The notes below the pieces were generated by a model. The model did no database searches. It was given only the letters and a program-made list of their open reading frames with translations, and had not been told where the DNA came from. The translations under genes were made by a program, and so were the position numbers. A DNA stretch of 64,000 nt from the IMG/VR virus record IMGVR_UViG_3300043427_001988, positions 4,927 through 68,926 of that record; one strand, given 5' to 3'. Within the stretch, counting starts at the first letter, position 1. Every line of letters starts with the position of its first letter. The stretch is from a virus. This document shows positions 1 through 63,157 of the stretch, piece by piece.

Positions 1-162
1 AAATTCCTGCTGTGAGTAGTGATTTGAATATTGATTATCCGCCGCAAGGTCACGCATATCTTCAACGCACAGCCAAAACGCGTCTGTGTCGTTTTGTGGT
101 AACTCAATAAGGATTTTGTACGTTGCCCAAAACATCACGGTATAGTTAGTCCACTTGTTCAT
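1..162 (-). CDS. small early protein, partial (runs off window)
   Basis: ATG at 162 (MNKWTNYTVMF...), AAGGAG RBS and TTGACA-17-TATACT promoter upstream; not in ORF track. Confidence 0.7.
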   Translation of the reverse strand, partial: MNKWTNYTVMFWATYKILIELPQNDTDAFWLCVEDMRDLAADNQYSNHYSQQEF

Positions 163-193
163 ACGTCGCTCTCCTTAACTTGCTTACATAGTA

Positions 194-248
194 AGTATAC
201 ACGATAAACAAACCGGTGTCAATAGCAGTTTTATGAGAAATCTCTCAT
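194..248 (-). promoter_or_regulatory. sigma70-type promoter with upstream ATGAGA-N4-TCTCAT palindrome
   Basis: TTGACA (222-217), 17 bp, TATACT (199-194); palindrome at 233-248. Confidence 0.9.
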
Positions 249-322
249 AATCGGGGCTTGGGGCACCCCCTACCCCCTAAAACCCCTTACACTTTCGTGC
301 AAGGGGCTAGAGGTGTAAGTGA

Positions 323-1045
323 TTAGTGATACTTGAAACCGATTACACGGGGCGTTGTAAGGCTTGGTAATGCGCTAGGAGCGCACAAGCGACACGCTAC
401 ACATTTTACAGTACCCTGTGTAATCTGATTTGGGCAAATAACTAACTTTGCCCCGCCTAACATATCCGGTGTAGGAATATTTTTTACATTTACCGCCAAC
501 GTCGTAAGCCATCCTAATGCACGGGCAAGCCGTACTTCGTCTGCTGTATCACATGAAGCCATAAACCATTTTTTGAGCGGTTGCAATTCATCTAACATCC
601 AGCCGTGAGTGTATCCGATACTTTTTACACCGATTGCATCTAATTGTTCACACGCCCACACTTGTGCATCAATATACTCTTTACTTGGCTTATCGTTCTC
701 AAACACATCACCGCTAACATGCCAGCGTACCATTTGTACACGTTTAGCCGCAGTTACGCCCTTGCCTTTATCAGCGTTGCGTAGCGTCATAAACTTTGAC
801 ACTTCTACCCGTAACTTAAGAGCATCTACCATACCCGATTTTGCCTGCTGTAAATTAGTGCGCCCTTTTTTGGTGTAACAGATAGTCATACGCCCGAATG
901 CTTGACGTTTTGCCTCACCGTACTCGTTAGGCTCGGGGTGATACATACACGACGACGGGCAAGAATCACCGGTACGGTTGTATGTTACTGCTACTGATTT
1001 GTCGGTTGACAGTTTCGCATCGCCACTATTTACTACAAACTTCAT
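323..1045 (-). CDS. Cys-rich phage protein, GP88-like (possible Fe-S protein)
   Basis: SCPSSC..CY, RWHVSGD, YTHGW, ASCD, CPNQ..CVACRLC motifs resemble the GP88-like phage family; AGGAG RBS. Confidence 0.6.
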   Translation of the reverse strand: MKFVVNSGDAKLSTDKSVAVTYNRTGDSCPSSCMYHPEPNEYGEAKRQAFGRMTICYTKKGRTNLQQAKSGMVDALKLRVEVSKFMTLRNADKGKGVTAAKRVQMVRWHVSGDVFENDKPSKEYIDAQVWACEQLDAIGVKSIGYTHGWMLDELQPLKKWFMASCDTADEVRLARALGWLTTLAVNVKNIPTPDMLGGAKLVICPNQITQGTVKCVACRLCAPSALPSLTTPRVIGFKYH

Positions 1046-1244
1046 AATCGTTACTCCTCAATCACTTACATATATAGTATAACATACAAATACCCAAAGT
1101 AAAATGAGAGAATGATGAGAAGCAACACTTTACACCCTTACACCGGCCAGGGCTTTGTGATGCGGTGTTGGCCCTGGGTGGTGTAAGGGGGCCTGTGGGC
1201 GACCCCCTACCCCCTAATTCAAAGTGAATTGGGGGCTGTGGTGA

Positions 1245-1499
1245 CTAGTCGTCGTATGCAGGGTCTGTACCGTCTTGATGAAAAGTCATTCCTACTCGAT
1301 TGTAGTTACCGTTAACAAACTCAATGTGTTGAGTAATACGAAAATCAGCGGTTTGTAGCCACTTATCTGAAAATGGTATCAGCAGAAACTCGTAACCATC
1401 CTCATCCAAAAATCGAATACCATCCTCAACGACAACCAAGCGGTAATCGTGGGTATGTTCCTGCCGACTTACTAAGTCACCTCGGTTAAAGAATGTCAT
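1245..1499 (-). CDS. hypothetical early protein
   Basis: ORF with GAGG RBS directly behind cassette promoter 1529-1557. Confidence 0.75.
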   Translation of the reverse strand: MTFFNRGDLVSRQEHTHDYRLVVVEDGIRFLDEDGYEFLLIPFSDKWLQTADFRITQHIEFVNGNYNRVGMTFHQDGTDPAYDD

Positions 1500-1528
1500 A
1501 ACAACCTCGCTTACTAACTTATGTATTA

Positions 1529-1583
1529 AGTATACCGCAAACTAGTGTATCTGTCAACAACAAGTTTATGAGAGTTTTCTCAT
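1529..1583 (-). promoter_or_regulatory. sigma70-type promoter with palindromic box
   Basis: TTGACA 1557-1552, 17 bp, TATACT 1534-1529; ATGAGAGTTTTCTCAT at 1568-1583. Confidence 0.9.
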
Positions 1584-1622
1584 TTGACGTGCTGCACGGC
1601 CTGGGGCACCCCCTACCCCCTA

Positions 1623-1844
1623 CTACGCTGGATTACCCAGGTAGTAGTGGACTTCATATACATCTATCAATTCCCCGTTTTCGTCGAGTGCCTCAAAGTG
1701 ACCGTCTACACGCTCTAGTTCATTTTCATAACAATAATCCGCACAATACATATCCGAACGCAATATAAAATCATCCATATCATTAATAGTAAAATCATCC
1801 ACCAACATCAAATCTTCACCCATATACGCACGTACTGTAATCAT
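1623..1844 (-). CDS. acidic hypothetical early protein
   Basis: ORF; AAAGGA RBS before MITVRAY; stop abuts the G-box repeat. Confidence 0.7.
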   Translation of the reverse strand: MITVRAYMGEDLMLVDDFTINDMDDFILRSDMYCADYCYENELERVDGHFEALDENGELIDVYEVHYYLGNPA

Positions 1845-1857
1845 CTGCTTATCCTTT

Positions 1858-2226
1858 CTACCATACCTCATTATTCCAGCGTGGATAGGTTAACCATCGA
1901 CGAGGCTCAAAACGCTCATCCAGTAATTCCTTCCCAAATACTGCTATTGAATCAATAACATCTTCATCTTCTTCCCCAAAGTATGCACAAGCGACTACCT
2001 TATTCCACTCTTCGGCGTAATAGTGATTCTTCCCTACAATCAGTTCGTATACATCGGGAAATTGTGCATACTCATAACCATGCACGAAAAACTTAATATT
2101 ACCTACATGACGCACAAGATGACGAACACGCCCACCGAGTACCATACGTGCGGCTTCAATTCGCTCTTCCACGCTCATCTGCTGTACCAAACGCATCACA
2201 TTCTCTAGGCTCATTGTGTACTCCAT
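1858..2226 (-). CDS. hypothetical early protein
   Basis: ORF behind TGnTATAAT promoter at 2244-2252. Confidence 0.75.
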   Translation of the reverse strand: MEYTMSLENVMRLVQQMSVEERIEAARMVLGGRVRHLVRHVGNIKFFVHGYEYAQFPDVYELIVGKNHYYAEEWNKVVACAYFGEEDEDVIDSIAVFGKELLDERFEPRRWLTYPRWNNEVW

Positions 2227-2371
2227 TTCTTGATTACATAGGTATTATAACACACTTTTGATAACTGAATTATGAGAACAAGATTAGAAAAACGGATTTT
2301 CAGTTTTCAGTTTTCAATTTTCAATTTTACTTGACTTTTTTCGATTTTCGGGTTACCCCCTACCCCCTACG

Positions 2372-2404
2372 CAAAAAGCCCCCGCTGATTACTCAACGAG
2401 GGCT
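2372..2404 (-). terminator. probable intrinsic terminator
   Basis: Minus strand AGCCCTCG...CGGGGGCT followed by TTTTT, downstream of ORF 2421-2837. Confidence 0.55.
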
Positions 2405-2420
2405 ATATACATTGTACACA

Positions 2421-2837
2421 CTAGGGAATAGCAAACCGAGAGCGATACCCTTCAATACCTAACTGCTCCGGCACACCTTTACTAATCAGTTCCTCAAACG
2501 AAACCGAGTGAGAGTATTGTACCTTCTCTGCTTCCGCATGGTAATGGTATATCTCTACCGTCTGCGTTGACCATGTGATTACAGGCAATTCACGGTACTC
2601 TGATTCGGGTAGAAACCGACCATACAACGACACACCACCGCCGAGCGTTGATTCATAACTGTTGATGATAGCATTCAACGCAATACGATTTGCATATGAA
2701 TAATCACTCCATCGCCCACTAGCCTGCACAACGGCGTTTTGTGCATCTACCATAGGATGCTTGCCCCAATGTGCATACACAAACATGATAGGCGACATCT
2801 GCGTATCACGAATACCCACTACTACACGATTACCCAC
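2421..2837 (-). CDS. conserved-type phage hypothetical protein
   Basis: MGNR...YAHWG N-terminus typical of a widespread phage family; GAGG RBS. Confidence 0.75.
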   Translation of the reverse strand: MGNRVVVGIRDTQMSPIMFVYAHWGKHPMVDAQNAVVQASGRWSDYSYANRIALNAIINSYESTLGGGVSLYGRFLPESEYRELPVITWSTQTVEIYHYHAEAEKVQYSHSVSFEELISKGVPEQLGIEGYRSRFAIP

Positions 2838-2880
2838 TAGCGCACCTCTTTCTATCTCTTACACAAGTATTATACCACAA

Positions 2881-3147
2881 TTAAAAATAGCGGTCAATCA
2901 TATCTTCGTAATCTTCCCCACGCTCATACTCCGAGATACGGTACTTAATACCCTCTGATTCAGCACGGTTAAGAAACTCCGGCGCATCACAATCCTCTTC
3001 GAGATACCACGTACTACCGACACAAACACTAAAACGAGTAGGCTTGAAACTGACACGCTCAACGAGAAACGTGGGCACTTCCAAATACCCGTGACGTGGC
3101 GTGCTTGAGAATACTAGACCGTAGATTACTTGTTGTGTGTTGCTCAT
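2881..3147 (-). CDS. phage hypothetical protein (STPxHG...LEEDCD type)
   Basis: Motifs STPRHGYLEV and WYLEEDCDA; AAGGAG RBS. Confidence 0.75.
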   Translation of the reverse strand: MSNTQQVIYGLVFSSTPRHGYLEVPTFLVERVSFKPTRFSVCVGSTWYLEEDCDAPEFLNRAESEGIKYRISEYERGEDYEDMIDRYF

Positions 3148-3353
3148 TTGGCAATTACTCCTTAACTTGACTACATAATTATTATACCAGACTTTTATGA
3201 GAATGGGGTGAGAGAATTTTGGGTTCCTGGACCAGGACCAAGGTAGTGCAGCGACGGCCTCACAAATGCCCCTAGAAATTTATTAGAGCGACGATAGCCC
3301 CAAAGTAGGGGGGCTGGGGGGTACGCCCCGAAGGGCTTGTTGTCAAGTGGTTT

Positions 3354-3587
3354 TTAGAGCAAATCTACCTCATTTGAACTAATCCAGTGCCCAACGTTAT
3401 TACGGTAATCCACCACGGCTATAAGCATTTCTTGAAGGTCGTTTAATGTGTATGTAAACTTTTCTACTGTTTTATACCATTCCAGCACATCGTTTGATGT
3501 AATTTCCAAAAAACAATGATTTTGAGTAATTTCGATGGTCAATGTGTATGCTTTGTACTCGGTAGTGACTTTATTAGTCCACATCAT
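3354..3587 (-). CDS. hypothetical early protein, paralog A
   Basis: GAGG RBS; similar to 3717-3965 (MWT...Y.L.I.ITQ...VVD....WI.SN.VD.L). Confidence 0.8.
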   Translation of the reverse strand: MMWTNKVTTEYKAYTLTIEITQNHCFLEITSNDVLEWYKTVEKFTYTLNDLQEMLIAVVDYRNNVGHWISSNEVDLL

Positions 3588-3618
3588 AACGCACCTCACT
3601 TAACTTGATTACATTAGT

Positions 3619-3673
3619 ATTATAGCGCAGGTAATAACCCGTGTCAAGAGGAAGTAGATGAGAGTTTTCTCAT
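3619..3673 (-). promoter_or_regulatory. sigma70-type promoter with palindromic box
   Basis: TTGACA 3647-3642, 17 bp, TATAAT 3624-3619; box at 3658-3673. Confidence 0.9.
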
Positions 3674-3716
3674 TTGACAAACGCCCCGGTCTGGGGCACC
3701 CCCTACCCCCTATCGC

Positions 3717-3965
3717 TTACAACGTGTCTACATCATTTGAATGAATCCATACCTTGAAGTTGAGGTAGTTATCAACTACCTTCATTAATAGTGCTTGTGC
3801 ATCTTCTAAGGATGCATCGCCACGGTTAATTATATGTGAAAATACCGGCGGGCTATCATATTGATTTGGTGCATCAATGAATAGGATATAATCCCGCTGA
3901 GTAATCACAATTTCCAAATTATACAACTCATAATCCCGCGATGCTCTCACTGTCCACATGTCCAT
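3717..3965 (-). CDS. hypothetical early protein, paralog B
   Basis: GAGG RBS, own promoter near 3998-4025; similar to 3354-3587. Confidence 0.8.
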   Translation of the reverse strand: MDMWTVRASRDYELYNLEIVITQRDYILFIDAPNQYDSPPVFSHIINRGDASLEDAQALLMKVVDNYLNFKVWIHSNDVDTL

Positions 3966-4021
3966 GATGTACCTCACTTAATTTGATTACACTAGTAGTA
4001 TACCATGAACCTAAACCAATG

Positions 4022-4234
4022 TCAATAAGTTTGTGAAATCCGCTGTAATTGACCGTCTGCATCAACGGTAAAATCAAAAGCGTGGGAATCTAAATCAATA
4101 AAATCATCACCAAAATCTGTGGGCGTGTAGGTTATTGAACTTAACACTGCACCATCTTGAGCATAGGCAGTTACGTCAAAGGTATCAAATCCACGAATAT
4201 GAACTTGGATGCGAACTTGTTGAATCTGGCTCAT
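4022..4234 (-). CDS. hypothetical early protein
   Basis: Start revised to MSQIQQ, behind GGAG RBS and promoter 4271-4299. Confidence 0.7.
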   Translation of the reverse strand: MSQIQQVRIQVHIRGFDTFDVTAYAQDGAVLSSITYTPTDFGDDFIDLDSHAFDFTVDADGQLQRISQTY

Positions 4235-4270
4235 GTCATTAACTCCGTTACTTAACTTGATTACATTAGT

Positions 4271-4325
4271 AGTATAAACGATATTCATACTGTTGTCAAG
4301 AGCAGTTTTATGAGAGTTTTCTCAT
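4271..4325 (-). promoter_or_regulatory. sigma70-type promoter with palindromic box
   Basis: TTGACA 4299-4294, 17 bp, TATACT 4276-4271; box at 4310-4325. Confidence 0.9.
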
Positions 4326-4389
4326 TTGACAAACGCCCCGGCCTGGGGCACCCCCTACCCCCTACGCAACGAAAAAAGACCCGCCCTGA

Positions 4390-4557
4390 TTACCAGGGCA
4401 GGTCTGACAAGTCAACAATCGGACTAGTATCAGCAGGGATAATTACATCTTGCTCATCAATCCACTGCTCCCACACTTGCTCAAAGTCGGGGGCGATTTC
4501 GTCAACTTGCTCATCCATCATGAAGTCGGTGAGGAAGATAAGTGGTAAGTTTGGCAT
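4390..4557 (-). CDS. small, highly acidic protein
   Basis: Start revised to MPNLPL behind AAGGAG; D/E-rich; own promoter near 4588-4616. Confidence 0.7.
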   Translation of the reverse strand: MPNLPLIFLTDFMMDEQVDEIAPDFEQVWEQWIDEQDVIIPADTSPIVDLSDLPW

Positions 4558-4612
4558 TTCGCATCTCCTTAACTTGATTACATACGTAGTATAGCACACA
4601 TTGAAACCGGTG

Positions 4613-4858
4613 TCAAGTGAGTATTTTTTCAATTACCACATACGGGGCAATAAACATACATACATCACTTGGTAACATAAGATGTAATGAAACAGTATCT
4701 TTATTTTGCACATATGCAACCATCTCGGCAATCTCACGGGCACGCTCTTCTGTAATCGTAGCCGCAATACGCTCATCTTCGGTTAATTCAATACGCCCGA
4801 CAATCTCGCCGTTGTGAGTGATTTTGATGTGTGTCCACGGTGCAAGTGTGTTGCTCAT
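4613..4858 (-). CDS. hypothetical early protein
   Basis: Start revised to MSNTLAPW behind AAGGAG. Confidence 0.75.
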   Translation of the reverse strand: MSNTLAPWTHIKITHNGEIVGRIELTEDERIAATITEERAREIAEMVAYVQNKDTVSLHLMLPSDVCMFIAPYVVIEKILT

Positions 4859-4888
4859 TTCGCATCTCCTTAACTTGATTACATTAGT

Positions 4889-4943
4889 AGTATAAACGAT
4901 ATTCATACTGTTGTCAAGAGTAGTTTTATGAGAGTTTTCTCAT
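4889..4943 (-). promoter_or_regulatory. sigma70-type promoter with palindromic box
   Basis: TTGACA 4917-4912, 17 bp, TATACT 4894-4889; box at 4928-4943. Confidence 0.9.
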
Positions 4944-4979
4944 TTGACAAACGCCCCGGCCTGGGGCACCCCCTACCCC

Positions 4980-5081
4980 CTAGTCCTCGTCGAAAAGTTC
5001 TGATTTAATCCGCCCGCTAATTACTAAAACAAAACCCACAATACTTACATAACCCATATAAACCAAAATCATCTCTAACAT
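4980..5081 (-). CDS. 33-aa single-pass membrane peptide
   Basis: MLEMILVYMGYVSIVGFVLVISGRIKSELFDED*; AAAGGG RBS; stop abuts G-box; not in ORF track. Confidence 0.6.
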   Translation of the reverse strand: MLEMILVYMGYVSIVGFVLVISGRIKSELFDED

Positions 5082-5101
5082 AGTACACACCCTTTCTATA
5101 A

Positions 5102-5234
5102 TGGTGGAGATGTCGGGAATCGAACCCGAGTCCAAAATGCTTTACACCATTGAAGGTAGGCGGTTTTCGCGTCTTACCGTGGGCAGTTATCACTACTCAC
5201 CGCCAAAACACCCTGTCAATACCGTGTCATCCCC
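5102..5234 (-). ncRNA. ssrA: miniature tmRNA (tRNA-like domain with very short insert)
   Basis: 5' GGGGATGACACGGTATTGAC...GGACTCGGGTTCGATTCCCGACATCTCCACCA 3'; acceptor stem with G3-U70, no D stem, P2-like helix, T arm, encoded CCA; only 133 nt. Confidence 0.85.
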
Positions 5235-5471
5235 TTATTGCAAATCCAGCGTATTCGTCACAGGATTAAAGTAGCGCACCGTTTTTGAGCCTTTAGCAAA
5301 CAACGGGTTACGAATTGGGGCACTAATTAACCACCGCCCATCATCCTGTGCAATAATCGAAAAATCCTCTAATCGTTGACCGCACATCTTCATCTCACGG
5401 TGTGAGAAAAACAGAGGATGATTCTCTTTGGTCAATCGCTTAATCTCGTGAATCGTTGGTCGCTTGTTCAT
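5235..5471 (-). CDS. phage hypothetical protein
   Basis: ORF with GAGG RBS behind promoter 5503-5531; stop directly abuts the tmRNA 5' end. Confidence 0.8.
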   Translation of the reverse strand: MNKRPTIHEIKRLTKENHPLFFSHREMKMCGQRLEDFSIIAQDDGRWLISAPIRNPLFAKGSKTVRYFNPVTNTLDLQ

Positions 5472-5502
5472 CGTGTCACCTCTTATCTAACCTTATGTAT
5501 TA

Positions 5503-5557
5503 AGTATACAGCACAAATACCAGCGTGTCAAGAGCAATTTTATGAGAGTTTTCTCAT
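5503..5557 (-). promoter_or_regulatory. sigma70-type promoter with palindromic box
   Basis: TTGACA 5531-5526, 17 bp, TATACT 5508-5503; box at 5542-5557. Confidence 0.9.
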
Positions 5558-5593
5558 TTGACAAACCCCGCGGCCTGGGGCACCCCCTACCCC

Positions 5594-5809
5594 CTATCGC
5601 TGAATATGCTCATATTTTGCTTCACATTGTTTACAAATATGTTTCACCCCGACGTTACCATCATAGAAACAATATTCATAAAAGGTATAAAAGCCTGCTG
5701 GGAAAGTAAACACCCGCAAATTATACTCTTCTTTACCACACGCCTGACAATGCGTATCAAAATATCGCTCAAGCCGACCATCATCACCGATACGTAGTTT
5801 AGCCTCCAT
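5594..5809 (-). CDS. small zinc-finger protein
   Basis: CQAC...CKQC; AAGGAG RBS. Confidence 0.75.
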   Translation of the reverse strand: MEAKLRIGDDGRLERYFDTHCQACGKEEYNLRVFTFPAGFYTFYEYCFYDGNVGVKHICKQCEAKYEHIQR

Positions 5810-5991
5810 AGCACACTCCTTAACTAACTTACAAGTACATTATAACACACATTCATACTGAGTTTTATGAGCGCAAGATTAGAAAATCAAATTTTGAATT
5901 TTAGATTTTGAATTTTCAATTTTAAATTTTAATTTTTCTTTTAATTTGACATTTTTTGAAATTCGGGCTACCCCCTACCCCCTGAACGCCA

Positions 5992-6168
5992 CTACGAGTA
6001 GTAGCGTTCGACCAACTCTTCACCATTTGCCCCGATGAAGTAGAGCAGGAACATAGTTTTCGGCATCATGACTTTGAGCAGTTGAATAGTCAACAGTGCC
6101 TTATCCAAGCCCTCTACATCCATTGAGCCGTTCCCGTGAGCGTATTCCATCTTGATGCGGTATGTCAT
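5992..6168 (-). CDS. 58-aa hypothetical protein
   Basis: MTYRIKMEYAHG...ERYYS*; AAGGAG RBS, TATAAT at 6203-6198; not in ORF track. Confidence 0.7.
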   Translation of the reverse strand: MTYRIKMEYAHGNGSMDVEGLDKALLTIQLLKVMMPKTMFLLYFIGANGEELVERYYS

Positions 6169-6300
6169 ATCAGACTCCTTACTTAACTTATGTATCTATT
6201 ATACACCAAAAAAGTACGCTGTGCGCGACTTTTCATGAGAATTAGATGAGAAAACAGGGGGGCTGGGGGGTGCGCCCCGAGGGGCTTTTTGTCAAGCGGG

Positions 6301-6714
6301 CTACTCTTTTGGTATTGGATACCAGCCAAGTAGTTTACCTGATTCATCACAAGTAAACATGTAACCATCAGCGGATAGTCTATCCAAATCACTTGCGATT
6401 TCTTTCCAAAGTGATACCCAATCTTCTTGAGAGATTTGCTCTACATCGGTTACATCATTCTCAAGATACGTAAAAACCCGCCCCAACATATTATCTGACA
6501 AATACCTACATGAAATATCCACCAAATCAGGAATAGGCAAGTCAATAGGCGCAAACATACGATTAGCAAACATAGCACTCTGCTCCTTTTTTACTGAATC
6601 TGTAGCCTTTGATGATACTGAACATTTCACAAGTACCGGTTGCTTTGGTACAAAAGAATCCCGCACATCGTTATTCAACCACTCTTGCAATTCACTAATC
6701 GTCATATCACTCAT
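6301..6714 (-). CDS. hypothetical early protein
   Basis: Start revised to MSDMTI behind AAGGAG; TTGACT/TATACT promoter near 6740-6768. Confidence 0.75.
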   Translation of the reverse strand: MSDMTISELQEWLNNDVRDSFVPKQPVLVKCSVSSKATDSVKKEQSAMFANRMFAPIDLPIPDLVDISCRYLSDNMLGRVFTYLENDVTDVEQISQEDWVSLWKEIASDLDRLSADGYMFTCDESGKLLGWYPIPKE

Positions 6715-6904
6715 AACATACTCCTTACTTACATACATAAGTATACACGAAATGCAGAAAAAAGTCAAACGCAAAAAAAAAAACTCCCCGACGCTGGGCC
6801 GGTGTAGTGGGGAAATGGCCTATACAGGAAATCTCTCGGAGCTGGACCGGAGTAGTGGCCCCTGCGGTTATCTATACGACCTTCAAAAAAAAAAGGGCGT
6901 TTTT

Positions 6905-7035
6905 CGGGGGCGGGGGCGCGCGCGTTATGTCAAGTTGTCGGGGCGTGTAGCGGGGCGGGGCGTGTAGCGGGGCGGGGCGTGTAGGGGCGTTTGGGGGCGT
7001 GTAGCGGGGCGGGGTAGGGGTAGGGGCGGGCGGGT
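6905..7035 (+). repeat. G-rich tandem repeat (GGGGCGTGTAGC/GGGGC units), G-quadruplex-prone
   Basis: More than ten G3-G5 runs in about 130 bp. Confidence 0.85.
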
Positions 7036-7587
7036 TTACCATGATGTGACGTAGTGATACCCTACACAACAATCAATACACGAACCACAATATGCACATG
7101 TTTCACCCGTCAAACAATCGAAACAATCAGTACATGTACAATGATAGCGGGTATCGTTGCATCGTTTGCATTGTAATTCACTACGGTATACATCTGTTAT
7201 GTATTGCGGGGTTTGACGGTATGCAATTACATCGTCTACTACGTAGTGAACCAATTCATTTACGATAAACGCTATAGACGGTTTACGGTGTGTACGAACG
7301 GGGGCGTAATTCATATGTAAACCCGTTTGGTAGTATTTGGTATTTAACGCCCGTACATATCCAAACGTATCATAGTGAACCGTTGCATAAATATGCGTTC
7401 GTTCAATTATGCCAGGTATCGTATACAGCGTATGTAACGCCCCGTTATGGTACGTATGTGCGGGTAAATCAATATTGATAGATAACGCCCCGTTCGTATC
7501 ACGGTGAACCCCTACGCTATACCCCGCAACAATCGTATTAATATAATCACCCCAAACCGTTCGTTTGATAGAATAATTCCTATTCAT
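7036..7587 (-). CDS. hypothetical protein with Cys-rich C-terminus
   Basis: CKRC..HCTCTDCFDC..CAYCGSCIDCC. Confidence 0.75.
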   Translation of the reverse strand: MNRNYSIKRTVWGDYINTIVAGYSVGVHRDTNGALSINIDLPAHTYHNGALHTLYTIPGIIERTHIYATVHYDTFGYVRALNTKYYQTGLHMNYAPVRTHRKPSIAFIVNELVHYVVDDVIAYRQTPQYITDVYRSELQCKRCNDTRYHCTCTDCFDCLTGETCAYCGSCIDCCVGYHYVTSW

Positions 7588-8068
7588 GATTAACCCCCGA
7601 TACAGTATTAATAAACTTACGAATTGAATTGATAGATAAATCCACGTTCACAGAGTAGGGTAGTAACAGTAGTATTTGCTGCGGGGTTAATACATCACGT
7701 TGCAACGAATTACATTTACTACAATCTACATACAAATTGAACGGGGTTAAATTACCCCCGAATATTCGGGGTATCTTATGACATATTGCAAGTTTATCAC
7801 CCCCGCAATTTATGCATTTGGGGCGTTCGGGTAAATCCAAACCGAACCGTTTGCAATTATCGTACACGCCCCTATGTGGTAAATGTTTAAATGATGTATC
7901 ACCCCCGATACTACCCGCTATCAAACCGTTATGCTCTAATAGGATTACATCATGATAGCGTTTATTAAAATCGGTAATTATTGCATCTGTAAGATACATA
8001 GATAATGCATCAAACGCCCCGCCCCCGTTTAATAAACGGTTCACTAGAATTAGTGGTATTTTCATCAC
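7580..8068 (-). CDS. HNH endonuclease-like protein
   Basis: CINC...ICHKIPRIFGG...NLYVDCSKCN matches the zinc-bound HNH pattern. Confidence 0.7.
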   Translation of the reverse strand: MMKIPLILVNRLLNGGGAFDALSMYLTDAIITDFNKRYHDVILLEHNGLIAGSIGGDTSFKHLPHRGVYDNCKRFGLDLPERPKCINCGGDKLAICHKIPRIFGGNLTPFNLYVDCSKCNSLQRDVLTPQQILLLLPYSVNVDLSINSIRKFINTVSGVNHE

Positions 8069-8658
8069 TCACCCCGCAAATTATCTGTATGAACGCCCCG
8101 TTTGATATATTCATAACGCCCCGAACCAAACGCCCCCGCTACATATTCGGTATGTTTGAATAATCGTAAATCGGGTATACGTAAACGAACCGCTACGCTA
8201 TCACTATTCACAAACGCATTATCAATATAGATGTAATCAATAACGGTATTTGTATCGTCTACCATATCCAAACGTAAACGATTTAACGCCCCGCTATTCA
8301 ATTCAATATTAATAATGCATTCATTCGGTAATAGATGATTTACGGGGTTATATTCATACCCGTAAAATATCACCCGATTATGATTATTAAATCGAACCCG
8401 TTCGTTAAATTGTTCTATTGCATCGTGTAGCGTGTAGTGGTTCGTTGTATCGTATAAATACCCCCCGTCGTTTACTACGCTAGTATGAAACAAATCACTA
8501 TAAGAGTAGCAGATGATTTGTAGTGTAGCGGTTTGGGTTTGTGCTACTGCAATAGCATTAACGTCAATACCCCCGTATGTTGTAACAATACGATATGTAA
8601 TACTTGAATAATCTACCCGTTCACCATTTGCATAAATATGCGTTCGTTTGTTAATCAC
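8065..8658 (-). CDS. hypothetical protein
   Basis: Start revised to GTG 8658 behind AGGGG RBS; the ORF-track extension is repeat DNA. Confidence 0.7.
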   Translation of the reverse strand: MINKRTHIYANGERVDYSSITYRIVTTYGGIDVNAIAVAQTQTATLQIICYSYSDLFHTSVVNDGGYLYDTTNHYTLHDAIEQFNERVRFNNHNRVIFYGYEYNPVNHLLPNECIINIELNSGALNRLRLDMVDDTNTVIDYIYIDNAFVNSDSVAVRLRIPDLRLFKHTEYVAGAFGSGRYEYIKRGVHTDNLRGE

Positions 8659-8727
8659 TACGATACCCCTATCAATATAATAGCGGGGGCGTATATCACC
8701 CCCGCAACGAACCCGCTGCAAACCGAT

Positions 8728-8743
8728 TGTTTCACGTGAAACA
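8728..8743. promoter_or_regulatory. parS: parS site (chromosomal consensus)
   Basis: Exact TGTTTCACGTGAAACA. Confidence 0.85.
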
Positions 8744-9124
8744 TTAACCCCGTTTGATTGTTGTAATCAATACGTCTAATGCATCACGGGTATTTTTTGC
8801 ATCATTCGAATATGTTTGTAGACGTGCTACTAATGCATTATTACGTTGAATTAACCCCCGCAACGTTTGTTTGTATGAACGTCGTAATTCTATATCGTAC
8901 CATTTGGTATCAATAAGTAGACCGCTGATAATAGTAATTTGTTTCGTTACATCGTTCAATTCTACGGTGTCAACATGGGTAAACCGTTCGATAGTTTGTA
9001 GCACGTCTAGTGTAGTACCAAATGTTGCAATTTGTAGCGGGTTCATATTCTTAACCCGTTCGTTCAATACCCGCTTATATTCGCTAGAATTAACCGGTTT
9101 ACGTTGCGTTTGTTTGTTATCCAT
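8744..9124 (-). CDS. hypothetical coiled-coil protein
   Basis: ORF with AGGGG RBS; stop abuts parS. Confidence 0.75.
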   Translation of the reverse strand: MDNKQTQRKPVNSSEYKRVLNERVKNMNPLQIATFGTTLDVLQTIERFTHVDTVELNDVTKQITIISGLLIDTKWYDIELRRSYKQTLRGLIQRNNALVARLQTYSNDAKNTRDALDVLITTIKRG

Positions 9125-9138
9125 TGTGAACCCCTATT

Positions 9139-9225
9139 CTATACTAATGCTAAAAATACAAATACTGCTATCACCCAAACATACACCCATACACAAACCC
9201 AAAAAATAAACGTCAAATTATCCAT
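9139..9225 (-). CDS. 28-aa hydrophobic membrane peptide
   Basis: MDNLTFIFWVCVWVYVWVIAVFVFLALV*; same AGGGGTTCACAATGGA start context as neighbours; not in ORF track. Confidence 0.7.
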   Translation of the reverse strand: MDNLTFIFWVCVWVYVWVIAVFVFLALV

Positions 9226-9293
9226 TGTGAACCCCTATCAATATAATAGCGGGGGCGTTTATCACCCCCGCAACGAACCCGCTGCAAACCGAT

Positions 9294-9309
9294 TGTTTCA
9301 CGTGAAACA
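9294..9309. promoter_or_regulatory. parS: parS site
   Basis: Exact TGTTTCACGTGAAACA. Confidence 0.85.
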
Positions 9310-9310
9310 A

Positions 9311-9595
9311 TCACCCACGGTGTCCAAATGTGAACCGGTGTATGTACACCCCGTCGTATTTACCATGTTTGATTAACTTGCGTACACGGTGTATTAACTT
9401 ACGTGCTACCAAATCATCACCCCGTAACAATGCGTTATATGCATCATCTAACAATCTACGTAATCTACCATAATAATCGTATACGTACACCTCATTTACC
9501 CCCAAATTGTAATCATCACATGCACGTTGTAGCATGATACCCGTTGTAACATGTAAGAGAAACAAACGTTTACCTAATTCACTAATGCTATTCAT
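9311..9595 (-). CDS. hypothetical protein
   Basis: ORF between repeat copies; AGGGG RBS. Confidence 0.75.
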   Translation of the reverse strand: MNSISELGKRLFLLHVTTGIMLQRACDDYNLGVNEVYVYDYYGRLRRLLDDAYNALLRGDDLVARKLIHRVRKLIKHGKYDGVYIHRFTFGHRG

Positions 9596-9663
9596 TCGAT
9601 ACCCCTATCAATATAATAGCGGGGGCGTTTATCACCCCCGCAACGAACCCGAACCGAACCCAT

Positions 9664-9679
9664 TGTTTCACGTGAAACA
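9664..9679. promoter_or_regulatory. parS: parS site
   Basis: Exact TGTTTCACGTGAAACA. Confidence 0.85.
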
Positions 9680-9680
9680 T

Positions 9681-9860
9681 TTACACCATTGACCATTGCA
9701 TAAACGCAACATAGCGGGGCGTATCGTATACACCCGCCCGTACATACCGAACGTATGGAACGCTATCACCCATGTACCATGTAGCAGTACCGACAATCAC
9801 CCCGCCCCGTACCAATTGAATGATGTATGCATCGCTATACATCGTATGTTTGTAATCCAT
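9681..9860 (-). CDS. 59-aa hypothetical protein
   Basis: MDYKHTMYSDAYIIQLVRGG...WSMV*; AGGGG RBS; fills the gap between repeats; not in ORF track. Confidence 0.7.
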   Translation of the reverse strand: MDYKHTMYSDAYIIQLVRGGVIVGTATWYMGDSVPYVRYVRAGVYDTPRYVAFMQWSMV

Positions 9861-9928
9861 TGTGAACCCCTATCAATATAATAGCGGGGGCGTATATCAC
9901 CCCCGCAACGAACCCGAACCGAACCCAT

Positions 9929-9944
9929 TGTTTCACGTGAAACA
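9929..9944. promoter_or_regulatory. parS: parS site
   Basis: Exact TGTTTCACGTGAAACA. Confidence 0.85.
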
Positions 9945-9946
9945 AT

Positions 9947-10219
9947 CTATAACCCGTTGCGTTTGTCGGTATGGTATATCATTGTTTGAATGTATACCAA
10001 ATCTAGAATTGACGGTTTACGCTTGTTTTCAATAATGCGTTCACCGTAGCACGTCGTAATAGCGTATGGGTTATGTACCGTTTTGTATACCGTGATGTAA
10101 TAATCACGAACGTACACGAATGTGTAGATTGTTTCATTGCCGTTCACGTCGTTAACCGTTAACGTCGTTGCGGGTGAACCGTCAAACGTCGTATTACCCC
10201 AAATCAAACCATGCTCCAT
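9947..10219 (-). CDS. hypothetical protein
   Basis: ORF between repeat copies; AGGG RBS. Confidence 0.75.
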   Translation of the reverse strand: MEHGLIWGNTTFDGSPATTLTVNDVNGNETIYTFVYVRDYYITVYKTVHNPYAITTCYGERIIENKRKPSILDLVYIQTMIYHTDKRNGL

Positions 10220-10286
10220 TGTAAACCCCTATTCATAATAGCGGGGGCGTTTATCACCCCCGCAACGAACCCAAACCCGAACCGAT

Positions 10287-10302
10287 TGTTTCACGTGAAA
10301 CA
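10287..10302. promoter_or_regulatory. parS: parS site
   Basis: Exact TGTTTCACGTGAAACA. Confidence 0.85.
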
Positions 10303-10323
10303 TTTACCCGAACCCGAACCCAT

Positions 10324-10339
10324 TGTTTCACGTGAAACA
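10324..10339. promoter_or_regulatory. parS: parS site
   Basis: Exact TGTTTCACGTGAAACA. Confidence 0.85.
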
Positions 10340-10567
10340 TTTTCACGTATTGACGGGCGGCATTTACCGATACAATCGGGTATTACGCCCCCCCCGTCTA
10401 TTGAATTGTCAATGTACCGTGATAGCGGGGGTTCGTTTACGCTACGTTTACCGTATGGGGGCGTTCGCAGTAGCCAAACCGTGAACCCCCCCGAACCCAT
10501 ATCACCCGCCCGTATCGGCGTGGACACCCGCCCGTATGGGGGCGGGGCGTAATTTAACGCTACGGGT

Positions 10568-10632
10568 ATTGTAACAAATCCAATACCCCCGTGCCAAAAA
10601 ATAGATTAACGTTTGATGAGAGAATTATGAGA
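10568..10632 (-). promoter_or_regulatory. probable promoter of the island operon, with TCTCAT direct repeat
   Basis: TTGGCA-18-TACAAT with extended TG; ATGAGA at 10616 and 10627. Confidence 0.6.
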
Positions 10633-10769
10633 AAAAACACTTAAAACCGTTTTTATTCATATTTTCTTAACAATCCAGGGGTAGAACAAATGTGCTACTT
10701 TTTGGGGTACGGACTATACACAGACCCTCAAAAATTTTTAAAAGCCTCCCCTTCCTTTTTACCCCCAGG

Positions 10770-10845
10770 AACCCCACATAAACCCCACATAAACCACCAA
10801 GAACCACCAGAGAACCACCAGAGAACCACACATAAACCACACAAT
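10770..10845 (+). repeat. about 11-bp tandem repeat (AACC(C/A)C..., 7 copies)
   Basis: aaccccacata x2, aaccaccaag, aaccaccagag x2, aaccacacata, aaccacacaata. Confidence 0.85.
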
Positions 10846-10864
10846 AAAAAAGAAGAGGAGCATG

Positions 10865-11218
10865 TTACTGCTCCTCCTCCGTGCTATTATTCGTATGTCT
10901 GCTCATGCGCAACCGCCGCTCTTCTACCGGCCTGGATAAATATTCTTCTCGCACATATTCATAGGGAACGTAATCAAGTAATCCCTTCGGGTCATCAAAC
11001 GACGTAGGGCTATTCAGGTGTTTGCGTACATACCATTTCAAATCGCGAGATGGTTTGAGATTAAGCACGGTCATCGTAGGGCCGTAGTGTACGCGTACTT
11101 CTTTATCATCCCAGGCCATGAAATACCCTGCACCCCATCCTTCTTTTGGTTTATAGAATTCTATCCAGCGTTCTTCAATACTCCCGCCGATAACAACGAC
11201 TTTACGAAATAAACTCAT
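10865..11218 (-). CDS. hypothetical protein
   Basis: Start revised to MSLFRKV behind GAGGAG. Confidence 0.7.
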   Translation of the reverse strand: MSLFRKVVVIGGSIEERWIEFYKPKEGWGAGYFMAWDDKEVRVHYGPTMTVLNLKPSRDLKWYVRKHLNSPTSFDDPKGLLDYVPYEYVREEYLSRPVEERRLRMSRHTNNSTEEEQ

Positions 11219-11468
11219 CGCGCGGTGCTCCTCGGTAATTGACGACGATAGTGTCGATAAAGAGATACCAGAAGTATATGGCAGTAACCTCGGCGGGAAG
11301 GAAGCCGGTGGTATCAAAAAAGGCCAGGACGATACTCGCCGACCAGGTGTACCGCCAGAGCAAAAAGGGGATTTGTAAGAGAAAGATAGGGCTCGCCAAA
11401 TCGGGCAACCAGTCATAGGCTACGGCAAGGGCACTAGACCCGAGCGCAAGAAGTAGGGTTGCCACCAT
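11202..11468 (-). CDS. small membrane protein
   Basis: Hydrophobic segments from MVATLLLALG; start uncertain. Confidence 0.55.
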   Translation of the reverse strand: MVATLLLALGSSALAVAYDWLPDLASPIFLLQIPFLLWRYTWSASIVLAFFDTTGFLPAEVTAIYFWYLFIDTIVVNYRGAPRDEFIS

Positions 11469-11977
11469 GAAGCCTGTACGATAAACGAGTCTGGTTTCAT
11501 CTCCAGCTGCATCGTAATAAAAAACGAACTTGTATTGGTAATCCGCAAGTCTTGCTCTTGCGTTGCTGAGCCATCCATGTTCCATATTGATACGTTGTCC
11601 TGTCGTTCTACCTCTAAGAGAGGAGTGGAATGAAGGGGAAACTCACGTTCCAGGCCAAATACCCGCGCGAGTTCTGCGTAGCGTGATGCTAAATCACACC
11701 ACCCACCGCCATAGACTCCCCCAGCGGTGATGAGTGGGTACATATCGGGATGACCGACCGTACCGTTAAAAGACCAGGTTTCTCCTGGCGCAATCGTGAC
11801 TGTTTCCAAGGGAGGAACAATCAGCGCAATATTGGTATCTCGCTCATGTCCACGCAGGATTGGCGTGGCCGTATAGACCACCTGGCGCGGAATGAGGGAG
11901 AGGATAAAAATAAGAAAAAATGTAATAAAGCTAGAGACGGCGTGCGTCGGTGACATAGACTTCCACGTCATTTTCAT
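11420..11977 (-). CDS. VanW-family membrane-anchored protein
   Basis: N-terminal TM; IAPGETWSFNGTVG and GGGWCDLAS match VanW motifs. Confidence 0.75.
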   Translation of the reverse strand: MKMTWKSMSPTHAVSSFITFFLIFILSLIPRQVVYTATPILRGHERDTNIALIVPPLETVTIAPGETWSFNGTVGHPDMYPLITAGGVYGGGWCDLASRYAELARVFGLEREFPLHSTPLLEVERQDNVSIWNMDGSATQEQDLRITNTSSFFITMQLEMKPDSFIVQASWWQPYFLRSGLVPLP

Positions 11978-63081: not shown

Positions 63082-63157
63082 GCCGATATAGTTTAAGGGA
63101 TAAAACAGCAACCTTCTAAGTTGCATAGTGGGGGTTCAAGTCCCTCTATCGGTACCA
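63082..63157 (+). tRNA. tRNA-Arg(TCT)
   Basis: GCCGATA/TATCGGT acceptor, GTTT/AAAC D stem, GCAAC-CTTCTAA-GTTGC anticodon arm, TTCAAGT loop, ACCA end. Confidence 0.95.

Follow-up and report, generated by a model that had tools for sequence, protein, structure and literature searches.

The window analysed here comprises 64,000 nucleotides of IMG/VR virus record IMGVR_UViG_3300043427_001988, and all coordinates refer to it. A 133-nt gene for a miniature tmRNA (mini-tmRNA) lies on its minus strand between two small open reading frames (ORFs). The putative transcription unit comprises, from 5' to 3':

5503 to 5531, minus strand: sigma-70-like promoter of the unit (TTGACA, 17-nt spacer, TATACT; 11/12 hexamer matches)
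5235 to 5471, minus strand: ORF of 78 aa, with base 1 of the RNA directly behind its stop codon
5102 to 5234, minus strand: whole mini-tmRNA gene, 133 nt (RF00023 72.6 bits, R1 139.4 bits)
4980 to 5081, minus strand: small hydrophobic ORF, 33 aa from the ATG at 5081, 21 nt 3' of the CCA end
4869 to 4982, strand not assigned: copy of a 114-nt repeated intergenic cassette (repeat family D1; G-rich element and next promoter), which closes the unit

A reading made from the sequence alone had placed the RNA in an early cassette, and the surroundings agree with this: the RNA is enclosed by strong sigma-70-like promoters and repeated intergenic cassettes. Eight sigma-70-like sites were found in 4500–6000, against 3.5 +/- 1.9 in shuffles, and repeat family D1 has six copies in 1–13000, with a promoter at 4917–4889. 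No Pfam family was detected for either flanking ORF, and the 78-aa ORF has no relative in the viral contigs searched. The window's genome was found to contain neither an integrase nor an RF-1-domain (ArfB-like) or peptidyl-tRNA hydrolase gene. SmpB (PF01668) was absent from all five records searched (the window's genome and four other carriers), while the control was positive in 10 bacterial genomes. Since the DNA polymerase of the window shares less than 30% identity with each of the best 25 records of the phage collection and less than 60% with all 3,829 records that have a match, the phage has no cultured relative there. Among cultured phages there is no near DNA match to 3500–7500, and distant matches are confined to the T arm of full-length phage tmRNAs. 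The 32 nucleotides at the 3' end of the RNA match nine MAG contigs assigned to Chloroflexota, Ignavibacteria, Campylobacteraceae and Paceibacterota, which indicates no single host. None of the runs on record as RNA contains the mini-tmRNA stretch.

The Rfam tmRNA model (RF00023) matches exactly the coordinates and strand proposed by the sequence-only reading for a one-piece tmRNA, and the score of 72.6 bits exceeds the gathering score of 47 (E 2.8e-26). The alignment spans model positions 1–374 of 374, with 54 nt standing for 292 model positions, and is the sole RF00023 match in the whole 68.9-kb virus record. The family model R1 likewise has no second match in the window. That reading had also pointed to automated tmRNA finders, and here the outcome is divided, because ARAGORN does not call the window's copy; on nine loci it called one tmRNA. 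The reading had further proposed a search for same-length homologs with covariation, and these exist: 13 distinct copies were found in related uncultured phages and metagenome contigs, every one of 132–133 nt. The relatives scanned with RF00023 score 61.3–79 bits; L063, L065 and L066 were scored with R1 only.

The comparative structure from the 13-copy alignment (A3) consists of a tRNA-like domain (TLD), a small hairpin and a single long arm in which P2, P3, the AGUA/GAA internal loop and a 3-bp helix lead to a 19-nt end loop. Subtracting an RNA position from 5235 gives its window coordinate. The elements are, with the evidence for each:

5228 to 5234, minus strand: acceptor stem, 5' strand (RNA 1–7, including G3); 7/7 pairs standard in 13/13 copies
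5216 to 5227, minus strand: stemless D-loop region (RNA 8–19); aligns with D-loop/GAC of the tmRNA model
5205 to 5215, minus strand: P2, 5' strand (RNA 20–30), partner 5133–5143; covariation, also RNAalifold
5199 to 5204, minus strand: P3, 5' strand (RNA 31–36), partner 5159–5164; covariation
5191 to 5197, minus strand: AGUA (RNA 38–41) and GYG (42–44), 5' side of the internal-loop/3-bp-helix module; AGUA invariant in 13/13
5172 to 5190, minus strand: 19-nt end loop (RNA 45–63); alignment A3
5166 to 5171, minus strand: CRY (RNA 64–66) and invariant GAA (67–69), 3' side of the internal-loop/3-bp-helix module; alignment
5159 to 5164, minus strand: P3, 3' strand (RNA 71–76); covariation
5145 to 5158, minus strand: P4 hairpin (RNA 77–90), 4-bp stem, 6-nt loop UUNRRU; covariation
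5133 to 5143, minus strand: P2, 3' strand (RNA 92–102); covariation, RNAalifold
5113 to 5129, minus strand: T arm (RNA 106–122), with GGAC (RNA 102–105) directly before; covariation
5102 to 5112, minus strand: acceptor stem, 3' strand (RNA 123–129), and encoded ACCA (130–133); ACCA invariant in 13/13

Standard pairs occupy 95.9% of the 468 pair cells, and compensatory changes occur at 20 of the 36 pairs; slid controls are paired in 38.7–46.6%. In 500 shuffles the observed value was never reached for four of five measures and once for the fifth. The same architecture is recovered by RNAalifold without prompting. Folded alone, the window RNA gives no significant result (z -1.49), and it is the comparison that supports the structure. 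An all-against-all covariation scan of the 13 sequences gave mostly noise but flagged the pair 43:65. The scan also flagged a double change at 49:62, which is confined to the paralog L068b.

All elements listed in the sequence-only reading are present, and most are backed by the 13 copies. The tRNA-like domain has a 7-bp acceptor stem with G3:U, a discriminator A followed by CCA, a stemless D loop and a T arm in 13/13. In the window the acceptor stem reads GGGGAUG/CAUCUCC, followed by ACCA; G3:U127 occurs in every copy, and the pairs 5:125 and 6:124 change jointly in L019. G12, G13, U14, U16, G18 and A19 are invariant in the D loop, and the invariant GAC (RNA 18–20) stands at its 3' end, with the C already belonging to P2. 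Both-side changes were found at 5/11 pairs of P2 (95.1% of cells paired), 6/6 of P3 (85.9%; GGCGGU/ACCGCC in the window), 2/4 of P4 (98.1%) and 4/5 of the T arm (100%). The helix G42:Y66, Y43:R65, G44:C64 is paired in 39/39 cells. The distant member L221 retains the AGUA/GAA module, there with a newly formed A43-U65 pair, and the distant member L197 has it as GUA-GCGG/CCGC-GAA. The pseudoknots PK1–PK4 of tmRNA are absent: the comparative structure contains two nested hairpins and no crossing pairs. An alternative helix of 55–60 with 71–76, which looked switch-like by eye, was rejected with 51.4% paired in register.

Two other identities were considered for the locus and rejected. For a two-piece (permuted) tmRNA (RF04321/RF01850), RF04321 gives 36.7 bits, under its cut-off of 47, and the gene order is that of a one-piece tmRNA; this sub-threshold match runs from the P4 hairpin and the 3' strand of P2 over the T arm and the 3' strand of the acceptor stem into the downstream ORF. 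As for an ordinary tRNA (RF00005), ARAGORN calls none at the locus, and within the Rfam tRNA clan the best overlapping match is the tmRNA model. The position of the anticodon arm is taken by an arm of roughly 24 layers.

The conservation of the RNA differs strongly from that of its neighbourhood. In a relative of about 91% identity (contigs of run X1, used for sequence conservation only), three changes fall in the 133 nt of the RNA, whereas 144 nt of the neighbouring ORF hold at least 21 substitutions and four indels; one of the three turns U43:G65 to U43-A65. No full-length tmRNA was found in the records of 12 relatives; the relatives carry same-length copies instead, contrary to the recent deletion that the sequence-only reading had named as grounds for giving up its claim. 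As judged by these comparisons, the window RNA is a real, selected, phage-encoded miniature one-piece tmRNA and not a decayed gene.

In some relatives the RNA looks like a stand-alone gene. A promoter-like site ends 11 nt 5' of it in L020 and in L065, two of the four loci scanned, and in L065 a terminator-like hairpin of 14 pairs begins 4 nt 3' of it. No such site was found in the other two, L060 and L061; weaker TTGCAT-type boxes are visible there by eye. A tRNA adjoins the RNA in L022 and L019. Two long contigs with the common 3' 32-mer, L004 and L006, carry two-piece tmRNAs and were not counted as relatives because they lack a homolog of the window polymerase.

The end loop begins with AUAACUGCC (RNA 45–53; invariant in 12/13 copies), followed by seven variable nucleotides and AGA. 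It includes a resume-like UAACU-GCC (RNA 46–53, window 5182–5189). According to PMC8363625, a resume codon is preceded by a pyrimidine at -5 and a purine at -4, and U(-5) and A(-4) before GCC match this rule. A search of 185,579 species genomes for the end-loop motif gave no match, so at that stringency nothing points to an origin in bacteria or prophages. L197 does not share the end-loop sequence, which means that not every member of the wider family has the resume-like motif. A role of the loop as antisense was rejected, since its 10-mer occurs four times in the window versus 3.34 expected, always in the same sense. The loop is sealed by a helix, which may keep it from being threaded into the mRNA channel.

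Three tandem stops (UAG UGA UAA) had been proposed in this arm. They do occur at RNA 40–48 of the window's copy, but the middle triplet is UGA in only 3/13 copies and CGA in 10/13. The stretch is better read as part of the internal-loop-plus-helix module, given the complete pairing of 42–44 with 64–66. Likewise, the proposed GCC frame without a stop before the CCA holds for the window, where the frame stays open up to the 3' end, but not for the family: Y66-G67-A68 is a UGA/CGA site, and UGA at 66–68 closes the frame in 7/13 copies, while CGA leaves it without a stop in 6/13, including the window's. In the paralog L068b, ARAGORN lets the tag frame start at position 51 (tag AFNAT*, coding part 51–68), and in the distant L221 the frame reads GGC CUA GCG AAG ACU UGA. 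Across the 13 copies there is neither a conserved tail nor a conserved stop, and the resume-like context alone is kept. A ribosome that resumed at GCC would run off in 6/13 copies, which argues against productive translation of the loop. A stop at a defined codon is not, as far as the alignment tells, under selection in the mini-tmRNA.

Reduced tmRNAs are not restricted to this family. TLD-only tmRNA-like genes of 67–90 nt were found in at least 120 stretches of viral contigs, and 20/20 sampled pass the Rfam cut-off. Their P2 is capped after 5–7 pairs by a small loop, they have no message-like part, and they often adjoin tRNAs. Their termini, D loop, GAC/GGAC and T arm are the same as in the window RNA; an 81-nt form (L002) has 32 3'-terminal bases in common with it. 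Further reduced classes of about 110 nt and of 127–153 nt were seen, and in the family of about 110 nt the presence of a stop is likewise erratic. A weak 86-nt match to the tmRNA model in G008 proved to be an ordinary tRNA. With at least 120 short forms and the additional classes, reduced tmRNAs appear to be a common feature of phages, and tRNA/tmRNA finders appear to miss most of them. The literature searched contains a single remark on reduced phage tmRNAs, on the 'TLD only' tmRNA of mycobacteriophage DS6A, and no description of the 67–90-nt set was found there; the supplements of PMC9004378 (phage tmRNAs called by ARAGORN) may include reduced forms.

The window RNA shares with the canonical one-piece tmRNA (SsrA; RF00023) the G3:U acceptor, ACCA, the D loop that lacks a stem and carries GAC, the T arm preceded by GGAC, the P2 helix that starts from the tRNA-like domain, and the resume-like context U(-5)A(-4)NNN-GCN. 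It differs in its length of 133 nt versus 374 model positions, in the lack of pseudoknots and of a conserved tag frame, stop codon or degradation-type tail, in a body made of just one arm, which holds the AGUA/GAA internal loop and is capped by a closed end loop of 19 nt, and in that its phage encodes no SmpB. Message-less tmRNAs of jakobid mitochondria are also natural tmRNAs cut down to the tRNA-like part; they are organellar and two-piece, and tag-free rescue or another role has been discussed for them. Full-length phage tmRNAs, such as those of mycobacteriophage Kumao (one-piece) and of Stenotrophomonas phage Marzo, Acinetobacter phage BUCT628 and OM43 phage Melnitz (two-piece; PMC9004378), are also phage genes, often in tRNA clusters or early regions, and some of the two-piece ones have a T arm and acceptor nearly identical to those of the window RNA. 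Unlike it, they keep pseudoknots and a tag frame with a degradation-type tail (215–409 nt by Rfam). The DS6A 'TLD only' tmRNA (PMC4131195) is likewise phage-encoded and one-piece with little beyond the tRNA-like domain. We located it at JN698994 28478–28560 (83 nt, 43.2 bits, under the Rfam cut-off). The long arm, the conserved end loop and the P4 hairpin are all missing from it, and DS6A is temperate (integrase annotated) whereas the window's phage has no integrase. Compared with the DS6A type and the 67–90-nt forms, the window RNA adds about 50 conserved nucleotides (P3, AGUA/GAA module, end loop, P4). The 133-nt RNA is best regarded as a distinct and larger class.

The predicted determinants for alanylation and for SmpB and EF-Tu binding (G3:U, ACCA, GAC/GGAC) are all seen in the window RNA. 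A decoy for SmpB and tag-free ribosome rescue, both named by the sequence-only reading, are in our view the two best candidate functions. The link to defences that cleave tRNA or mRNA, which that reading suggested, is speculative. We are about half convinced that the mini-tmRNA is charged with alanine, relies on the SmpB of the host and rivals host tmRNA at ribosomes that have stalled, without adding a tag. Host RNA polymerase would transcribe it early, and tRNA-like trimming would follow: RNase P would cut at G1, immediately 3' of the stop of the 78-aa ORF, while the gene itself supplies the CCA end. Host alanyl-tRNA synthetase would add alanine via G3:U, and the charged RNA would bind host SmpB and EF-Tu and contend for stalled ribosomes with the tmRNA of the host. 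The phage RNA could accept the nascent chain; as no proteolysis tag is encoded, trans-translation would thereby be diverted and ribosomes would be engaged or freed without host-style tagging. The end loop may be offered to SmpB and the decoding centre like a normal resume site, as suggested by the fixed arm length and the invariant UAACU-GCC loop. A TLD-only tmRNA accepts peptidyl transfer in vitro, according to PMC3895274, which cites Shimizu and Ueda 2006.

The main rival is a pure SmpB sponge, in which host SmpB is bound off the ribosome and host trans-translation is shut down, so that charging and ribosome entry are irrelevant. We consider it possible, although not probable. PMC4131195 already proposes SmpB titration for the DS6A tmRNA and, citing Mao et al. 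2009, states that a TLD-like molecule inhibits tmRNA strongly whether chargeable or not. Moreover, the message-less forms of 67–90 nt are so common that the core selected function may need only the TLD, and the stop codon is not conserved (7/13). A sponge, however, leaves unexplained why G3:U and ACCA are invariant in 13/13 copies, why the arm length is strictly fixed (132–133 nt in 13/13) and why the resume-like loop is invariant while every surrounding helix has drifted.

It is unlikely that the RNA is a true minimal tagging tmRNA, with resumption at GCC (RNA 51–53), a tail Ala-x-x-x-Thr and UGA at 66–68, which would be the shortest known tag. Such a reading is favoured by the frame that ARAGORN reads in L068b, by the UGA of 7/13 copies, which also occurs in L221, and by the fit of U(-5)A(-4) before a GCN codon to the rule of PMC8363625. 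Against it, 6/13 copies including the window's have CGA and no stop, U and C are swapped between close relatives (L068a U, L066 C), and the pair G42:Y66 fully explains this choice. The invariant part shows no synonymous-type variation, and stop presence is equally erratic in the second family of about 110 nt. Known degradation tags end in hydrophobic residues, and the tails lack such ends.

We also regard as improbable a tRNA-like RNA acting outside trans-translation, be it as a decoy or trigger of defence, as a protein scaffold via the AGUA/GAA module or as RNase P 'punctuation' of the early transcript. Internal-loop modules of the AGUA/GAA kind, here tentatively assigned as loop-E-like, often bind proteins, and since the window RNA sits between two ORFs its processing would cut the early mRNA. 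In addition, PMC11090510 describes predicted host defence systems with SmpB-like domains. Conversely, sites complementary or identical to the loop show no excess in the window (4 versus 3.34 expected), and punctuation is not needed in L065 and L020, because both have a promoter-like site at the RNA and L065 has the terminator-like hairpin as well. That the RNA has no function and is what a recent deletion left of a full-length phage tmRNA, or a piece of an attachment site, is scarcely credible and is refuted as far as sequence comparison can do so: the sub-threshold permuted-tmRNA match (36.7 versus 47) does extend past the CCA end, but 13 same-length copies have compensatory changes in every helix, the records of 12 relatives lack a full-length tmRNA, there is no integrase, both acceptor-stem halves are present and conservation is far higher in the RNA than in the ORF next to it.

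Coming back to an alanine-charged competitor of host tmRNA, we tentatively propose a wider version of it, which we think possible but rather doubtful. Alanine-charged 'headless' tmRNAs may be a widespread counter-measure of phages in the contest for stalled ribosomes. Among them, the 133-nt class would stand out as the most elaborate, its rigid arm (P2-P3-AGUA/GAA-helix) serving as a ruler that places the resume-like loop at SmpB and the decoding centre. Once the peptide had been transferred, the phage RNA would prevail over host tmRNA, and the chain, set free for instance through drop-off and hydrolysis, would bear a single added alanine but no degradation tag. If true, this would be a natural tag-free pathway of ribosome rescue and a minimal system for the setting of the resume codon.

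The tmRNA-SmpB system is the main bacterial ribosome-rescue system and a drug target. In the 133-nt RNA, a conserved natural tmRNA, pseudoknots and tag are gone, but the domain for charging and SmpB binding remains, together with a resume-like loop. Studies of the structure and kinetics of A-site entry, and of how the resume codon is placed, could use it as a ready minimal substrate. The RNA also hints at a manipulation of ribosome rescue by phages: tagging would be blocked, or ribosomes would be recycled faster while the host is being shut off or abortive infection attacks mRNA and tRNA. The common occurrence of reduced tmRNAs in viral contigs may matter more than the 133-nt RNA itself.

The Rfam tmRNA model (RF00023, gathering score 47 bits) matches the minus strand of the window at 5102-5234 with 72.6 bits (E 2.8e-26). 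This bears out the miniature tmRNA proposed in the sequence-only reading, and every sequence element listed there can be read in the window. The alignment spans model positions 1-374, with just the two model ends aligned and 54 nt in place of 292 internal positions. No other tmRNA-model match occurs in the whole 68.9-kb IMG/VR record (CheckV completeness about 90%), of which the window covers bases 4927-68926. ARAGORN, in contrast to the Rfam model, did not call the 133-nt RNA; its only call in the window is a tRNA-Arg(tct) at 63082-63157. Folded on its own, the sequence scored no better than shuffles (z -1.49); its minimum-energy structure departs from the comparative one. It is thus homology and comparison that make the case for the mini-tmRNA.

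A polymerase with 55-71% identity to that of the window is present on twelve IMG/VR contigs, the complete records of which were searched with RF00023. A match of 132-133 nt above the cut-off (66.3-79 bits) was found in four of the five records at 67-71% identity, while the fifth is a fragment (58% complete). No match above the cut-off came from the seven records at 55-56% identity; the one weak 86-nt match among them was rejected as an ordinary tRNA. Full-length tmRNAs in relatives, which the sequence-only reading had named as the opposing outcome, were not detected by RF00023 in the 12 records, four of which have the 132-133-nt copies. In viral contigs, a scan with the loop motif that is invariant in the RNA returned 29 stretches, 24 of them chance matches and five mini-tmRNAs, namely the four already known and one on L048, an 87.9-kb contig with terminal repeats. 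Since the L048 record has no detectable homolog of the window's polymerase, the mini-tmRNA extends beyond a single phage lineage. A longer loop motif found nine metagenome contigs, all with mini-tmRNAs, and had no match in one genome each from 185,579 species. ARAGORN exposed a second, diverged copy in the metagenome contig L068, about 2 kb from the first:

L068:5295-5427, minus strand, paralog of the 133-nt class
L068:7473-7605, minus strand, paralog of the 133-nt class

The second paralog departs from the otherwise invariant loop by C49G combined with G62C. In total, 13 distinct sequences were collected, each 132 or 133 nt long. The family model R1, built on this class, adds two more distant members, L221 (127 nt, 81.7 bits) and L197 (132 nt, 76.6 bits).

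The same-length homologs with covariation that had been suggested as a check thus exist. In the 13-sequence alignment (A3), six helices are present:

Helices of the 133-nt RNA (RNA positions; paired cells; pairs changed on both sides)
1-7 with 123-129: P1 (acceptor), 100% paired, 2/7
20-30 with 92-102: P2, 95.1% paired, 5/11
31-36 with 71-76: P3, 85.9% paired, 6/6
42-44 with 64-66: short helix, 100% (39/39) paired, 1/3
77-80 with 87-90: P4 hairpin, 98.1% paired, 2/4
106-110 with 118-122: T arm, 100% paired, 4/5

Standard pairs occupy 95.9% of 468 cells, and 20 of 36 pairs are changed on both sides. The observed value was reached by 0/500 shuffles for four of five measures and by 1/500 for the fifth, and pairing falls to 38.7-46.6% when the 3' partners are slid by 1-3 columns. 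RNAalifold, given nothing but the alignment, arrived at this architecture too, with the 3-bp helix among its 34 pairs (19 compensatory). Overall, comparative support for the six-helix structure is strong. Amid drifting helices, AGUA 38-41, G42, G44, AUAA 45-48, UGCC 50-53, A63, C64 and GAA 67-69 are invariant in the 13 copies, as are the G3:U pair and the ACCA end; C49, A61 and G62 vary solely in the second L068 paralog. AGUA faces GAA between Watson-Crick pairs, an arrangement that resembles a loop-E or bulged-G module. GUA, the short helix and GAA are retained in both distant members, with a new compensatory A43-U65 pair in L221 and a 4-bp GCGG/CCGC helix in L197, the end loop of which differs in sequence. 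A relative of about 91% identity (423-nt contig, sequencing run X1) has three changes within the RNA, A71G (pair with U36 kept), G65A (U43:G65 to U43-A65) and A55U (variable loop), while the adjoining 144 nt of ORF contain at least 21 substitutions and four indels.

The permuted tmRNA model RF04321 gave a sub-threshold match at 5035-5152, minus strand (36.7 bits, cut-off 47). It begins in the P4 hairpin, takes in the 3' strands of P2 and of the acceptor as well as the T arm, and continues into the small ORF downstream. Since the sequence at that place is unrelated in relatives, this match is probably due to chance.

In the end loop, U46 A47 A48 C49 U50 directly precede G51 C52 C53. According to the available text of Guyomar et al. 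2021 (PMC8363625), SmpB stacks on the four bases ahead of the resume codon, and position -5 in tmRNAs is preferentially a pyrimidine, position -4 a purine. The resume-like TAACT-GCC noted earlier is present and agrees with this rule, and for L068b, the diverged paralog, ARAGORN places the tag start at position 51 with the tag AFNAT*. The stop-free frame is true of the window's copy but not of the whole class: UGA 66-68 ends the GCC frame after five codons in seven of 13 copies (L019, L020, L063, L060, L065, L068a, L068b), while the other six (window, L022, L062, L048, L061, L066) have CGA and no stop before the 3' end. Close relatives alternate between U and C at this site, exactly the choice that the G42:Y66 pair permits. 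The three tandem stops of the sequence-only reading occur as triplets in the window, but the middle one (43-45) is UGA in just 3/13 copies. From this pattern we conclude that the "stops" are parts of a structural module and that selection does not maintain a fixed termination point in the 133-nt class. A degradation-type tail is not encoded in the 133-nt RNA.

Around the mini-tmRNA, the minus strand has small ORFs without assigned function, separated by repeated intergenic cassettes. Its transcription unit runs from promoter through 78-aa ORF, mini-tmRNA and 33-aa hydrophobic ORF to the next cassette; two further promoters of the region close the list:

5531-5503, minus strand, near-consensus sigma-70-like promoter (TTGACA, 17-nt spacer, TATACT)
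5471-5235, minus strand, 78-aa ORF, stop codon touching G1 of the RNA
20 nt downstream of the RNA, minus strand, 33-aa hydrophobic ORF
4917-4889, minus strand, near-consensus sigma-70-like promoter (TTGACA, 17-nt spacer, TATACT)
4616-4588, minus strand, near-consensus sigma-70-like promoter (TTGACA, 17-nt spacer, TATACT)

Window 4500-6000 contains eight sigma-70-like sites versus 3.5 +/- 1.9 in shuffles. Neither ORF has a Pfam family. The layout of promoters and cassettes suggests an early region. The stop codon of the 78-aa ORF (5235-5237) abuts G1 (5234); RNase P maturation would leave its mRNA ending exactly at the stop codon, possibly tying the fate of this message to RNA processing. In some relatives, the mini-tmRNA appears to be an RNA gene in its own right. 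Promoter-like sites end 11 nt before G1 in L020 (10/12 matches, extended -10) and in L065, where a 14-pair terminator-like hairpin starts 4 nt past CCA; the same scan found none in L060 or L061. A tRNA gene lies 10-170 nt away in L022 and L019.

Between 160 and 5940, each small ORF is preceded by a cassette that combines a near-consensus sigma-70-like promoter with a G-rich element (repeat family D1, six copies of 114 nt; promoter-bearing D3, D4 and D7, 6-8 copies each). Between early ORFs at 6923-7030, a G-rich unit of 17-20 nt (GGGGCGTGTAGCGGGGCGGG-like) occurs five times in tandem. At 8654-10342, a 93-nt repeat with a GC hairpin and the palindrome TTGTTTCACGTGAAACA recurs in 4-6 copies, 265-566 nt apart; these look like operators or another regulatory array. 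The phage encodes a family-A DNA polymerase, ribonucleotide reductase, methyltransferase and terminase, and no integrase was found in its genome. Polymerase comparison revealed no close cultured relative, with identity below 30% to each of the best 25 of 3,829 phage-collection records that gave a match and below 60% to all 3,829. An 867-aa ORF (18833-21436, minus strand) with Terminase_6C (terminase RNaseH-like domain) near its C-terminus and a weak intein splicing domain match at residues 126-416 may be an intein-containing large terminase. A 1857-aa ORF (35209-40782, plus strand) matched neither PHROG nor Pfam at the thresholds applied.

Reduced tmRNAs appear to be common in viral contigs. 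A generic pattern of one-piece tmRNA termini with a short body occurs in at least 120 of them, with about 100 distinct sequences of 67-90 nt among the matches listed. These genes, which retain the tRNA-like domain (TLD) only (loci L077-L195, e.g. L078:3031-3110 and L126:2015-2081), often lie beside tRNA genes, and all 20 sampled exceed the Rfam tmRNA cut-off (56.1-74.5 bits). Matches above Rfam cut-offs on some of these contigs further include RAGATH-24 RNAs, one Pistol ribozyme and one type II hammerhead ribozyme (L136:5205-5312, L126:871-1073, L077:5029-5100, L106:3130-3201, L085:974-1038). Intermediate bodies gave 23 stretches (103-130 nt) and longer bodies 19 (129-153 nt), five of the latter belonging to the 133-nt family. 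A separate family of about 110 nt (109-112 nt; L210, L215-L219, L222, L223, L225-L228, L230, e.g. L223:6385-6495) has a GAUUAnnGCC loop. A stop (UGA or UAA) follows after three codons in some of its members and is absent in others, mirroring the erratic stop of the 133-nt family.

The window's RNA is tmRNA-derived, and its reduced design has a one-line precedent in the available text of PMC4131195, the "TLD only" gene of mycobacteriophage DS6A. That gene has 83 nt and scores 43.2 bits with RF00023, whereas the window's RNA has 133 nt and scores 72.6. Cultured phages with a T arm like that of the window have full two-piece tmRNAs, annotated or found here. The literature searched (few subscription journals, supplements outside) contained only the DS6A remark on reduced phage tmRNAs and no description of the 67-90-nt set; the conserved arm and loop of the 133-nt RNA appear to be features of its own, not described there.

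Comparison identifies the RNA as a conserved tmRNA homolog with all sequence determinants of the TLD kept and pseudoknots and tag absent. The invariant G3:U pair and ACCA end, an arm length fixed to the nucleotide and the invariant resume-like loop favour a charged competitor of host tmRNA; a pure SmpB sponge, the main rival and a tentative possibility, would need none of them. In favour of the sponge, much shorter loop-less forms are abundant in viral contigs, and the available text of PMC4131195 (citing Mao et al. 2009) states that a TLD-like molecule, chargeable or not, strongly inhibits tmRNA in cells. For the DS6A gene, titration of SmpB was proposed there by Hudson, Lau and Williams. A tagging mini-tmRNA with a real five-codon tag is unlikely, given six of 13 copies without a stop. 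A role outside trans-translation is improbable as well: host defence systems with SmpB-like domains are predicted (available text of PMC11090510), but nothing ties them to the mini-tmRNA. As explanations, a decaying relic and an attachment-site fragment are in effect ruled out. The sequence-only reading is supported in part: its identification of the RNA stands, and an SmpB decoy or tag-free rescue RNA is a proposal for the function.

Neither an RF-1-domain protein nor a peptidyl-tRNA hydrolase was found in the window's genome. A search of five records, those of the window's genome and of four other carriers, found no SmpB gene, so that any SmpB-dependent action must use the host protein. Nascent peptide transfer to a TLD-only tmRNA is possible in vitro, as the available text of PMC3895274 states (citing Shimizu and Ueda 2006). 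For the charged competitor, to which we give about an even chance, the mini-tmRNA would be charged, would then bind host SmpB and EF-Tu, and would compete with host tmRNA on the stalled ribosome.
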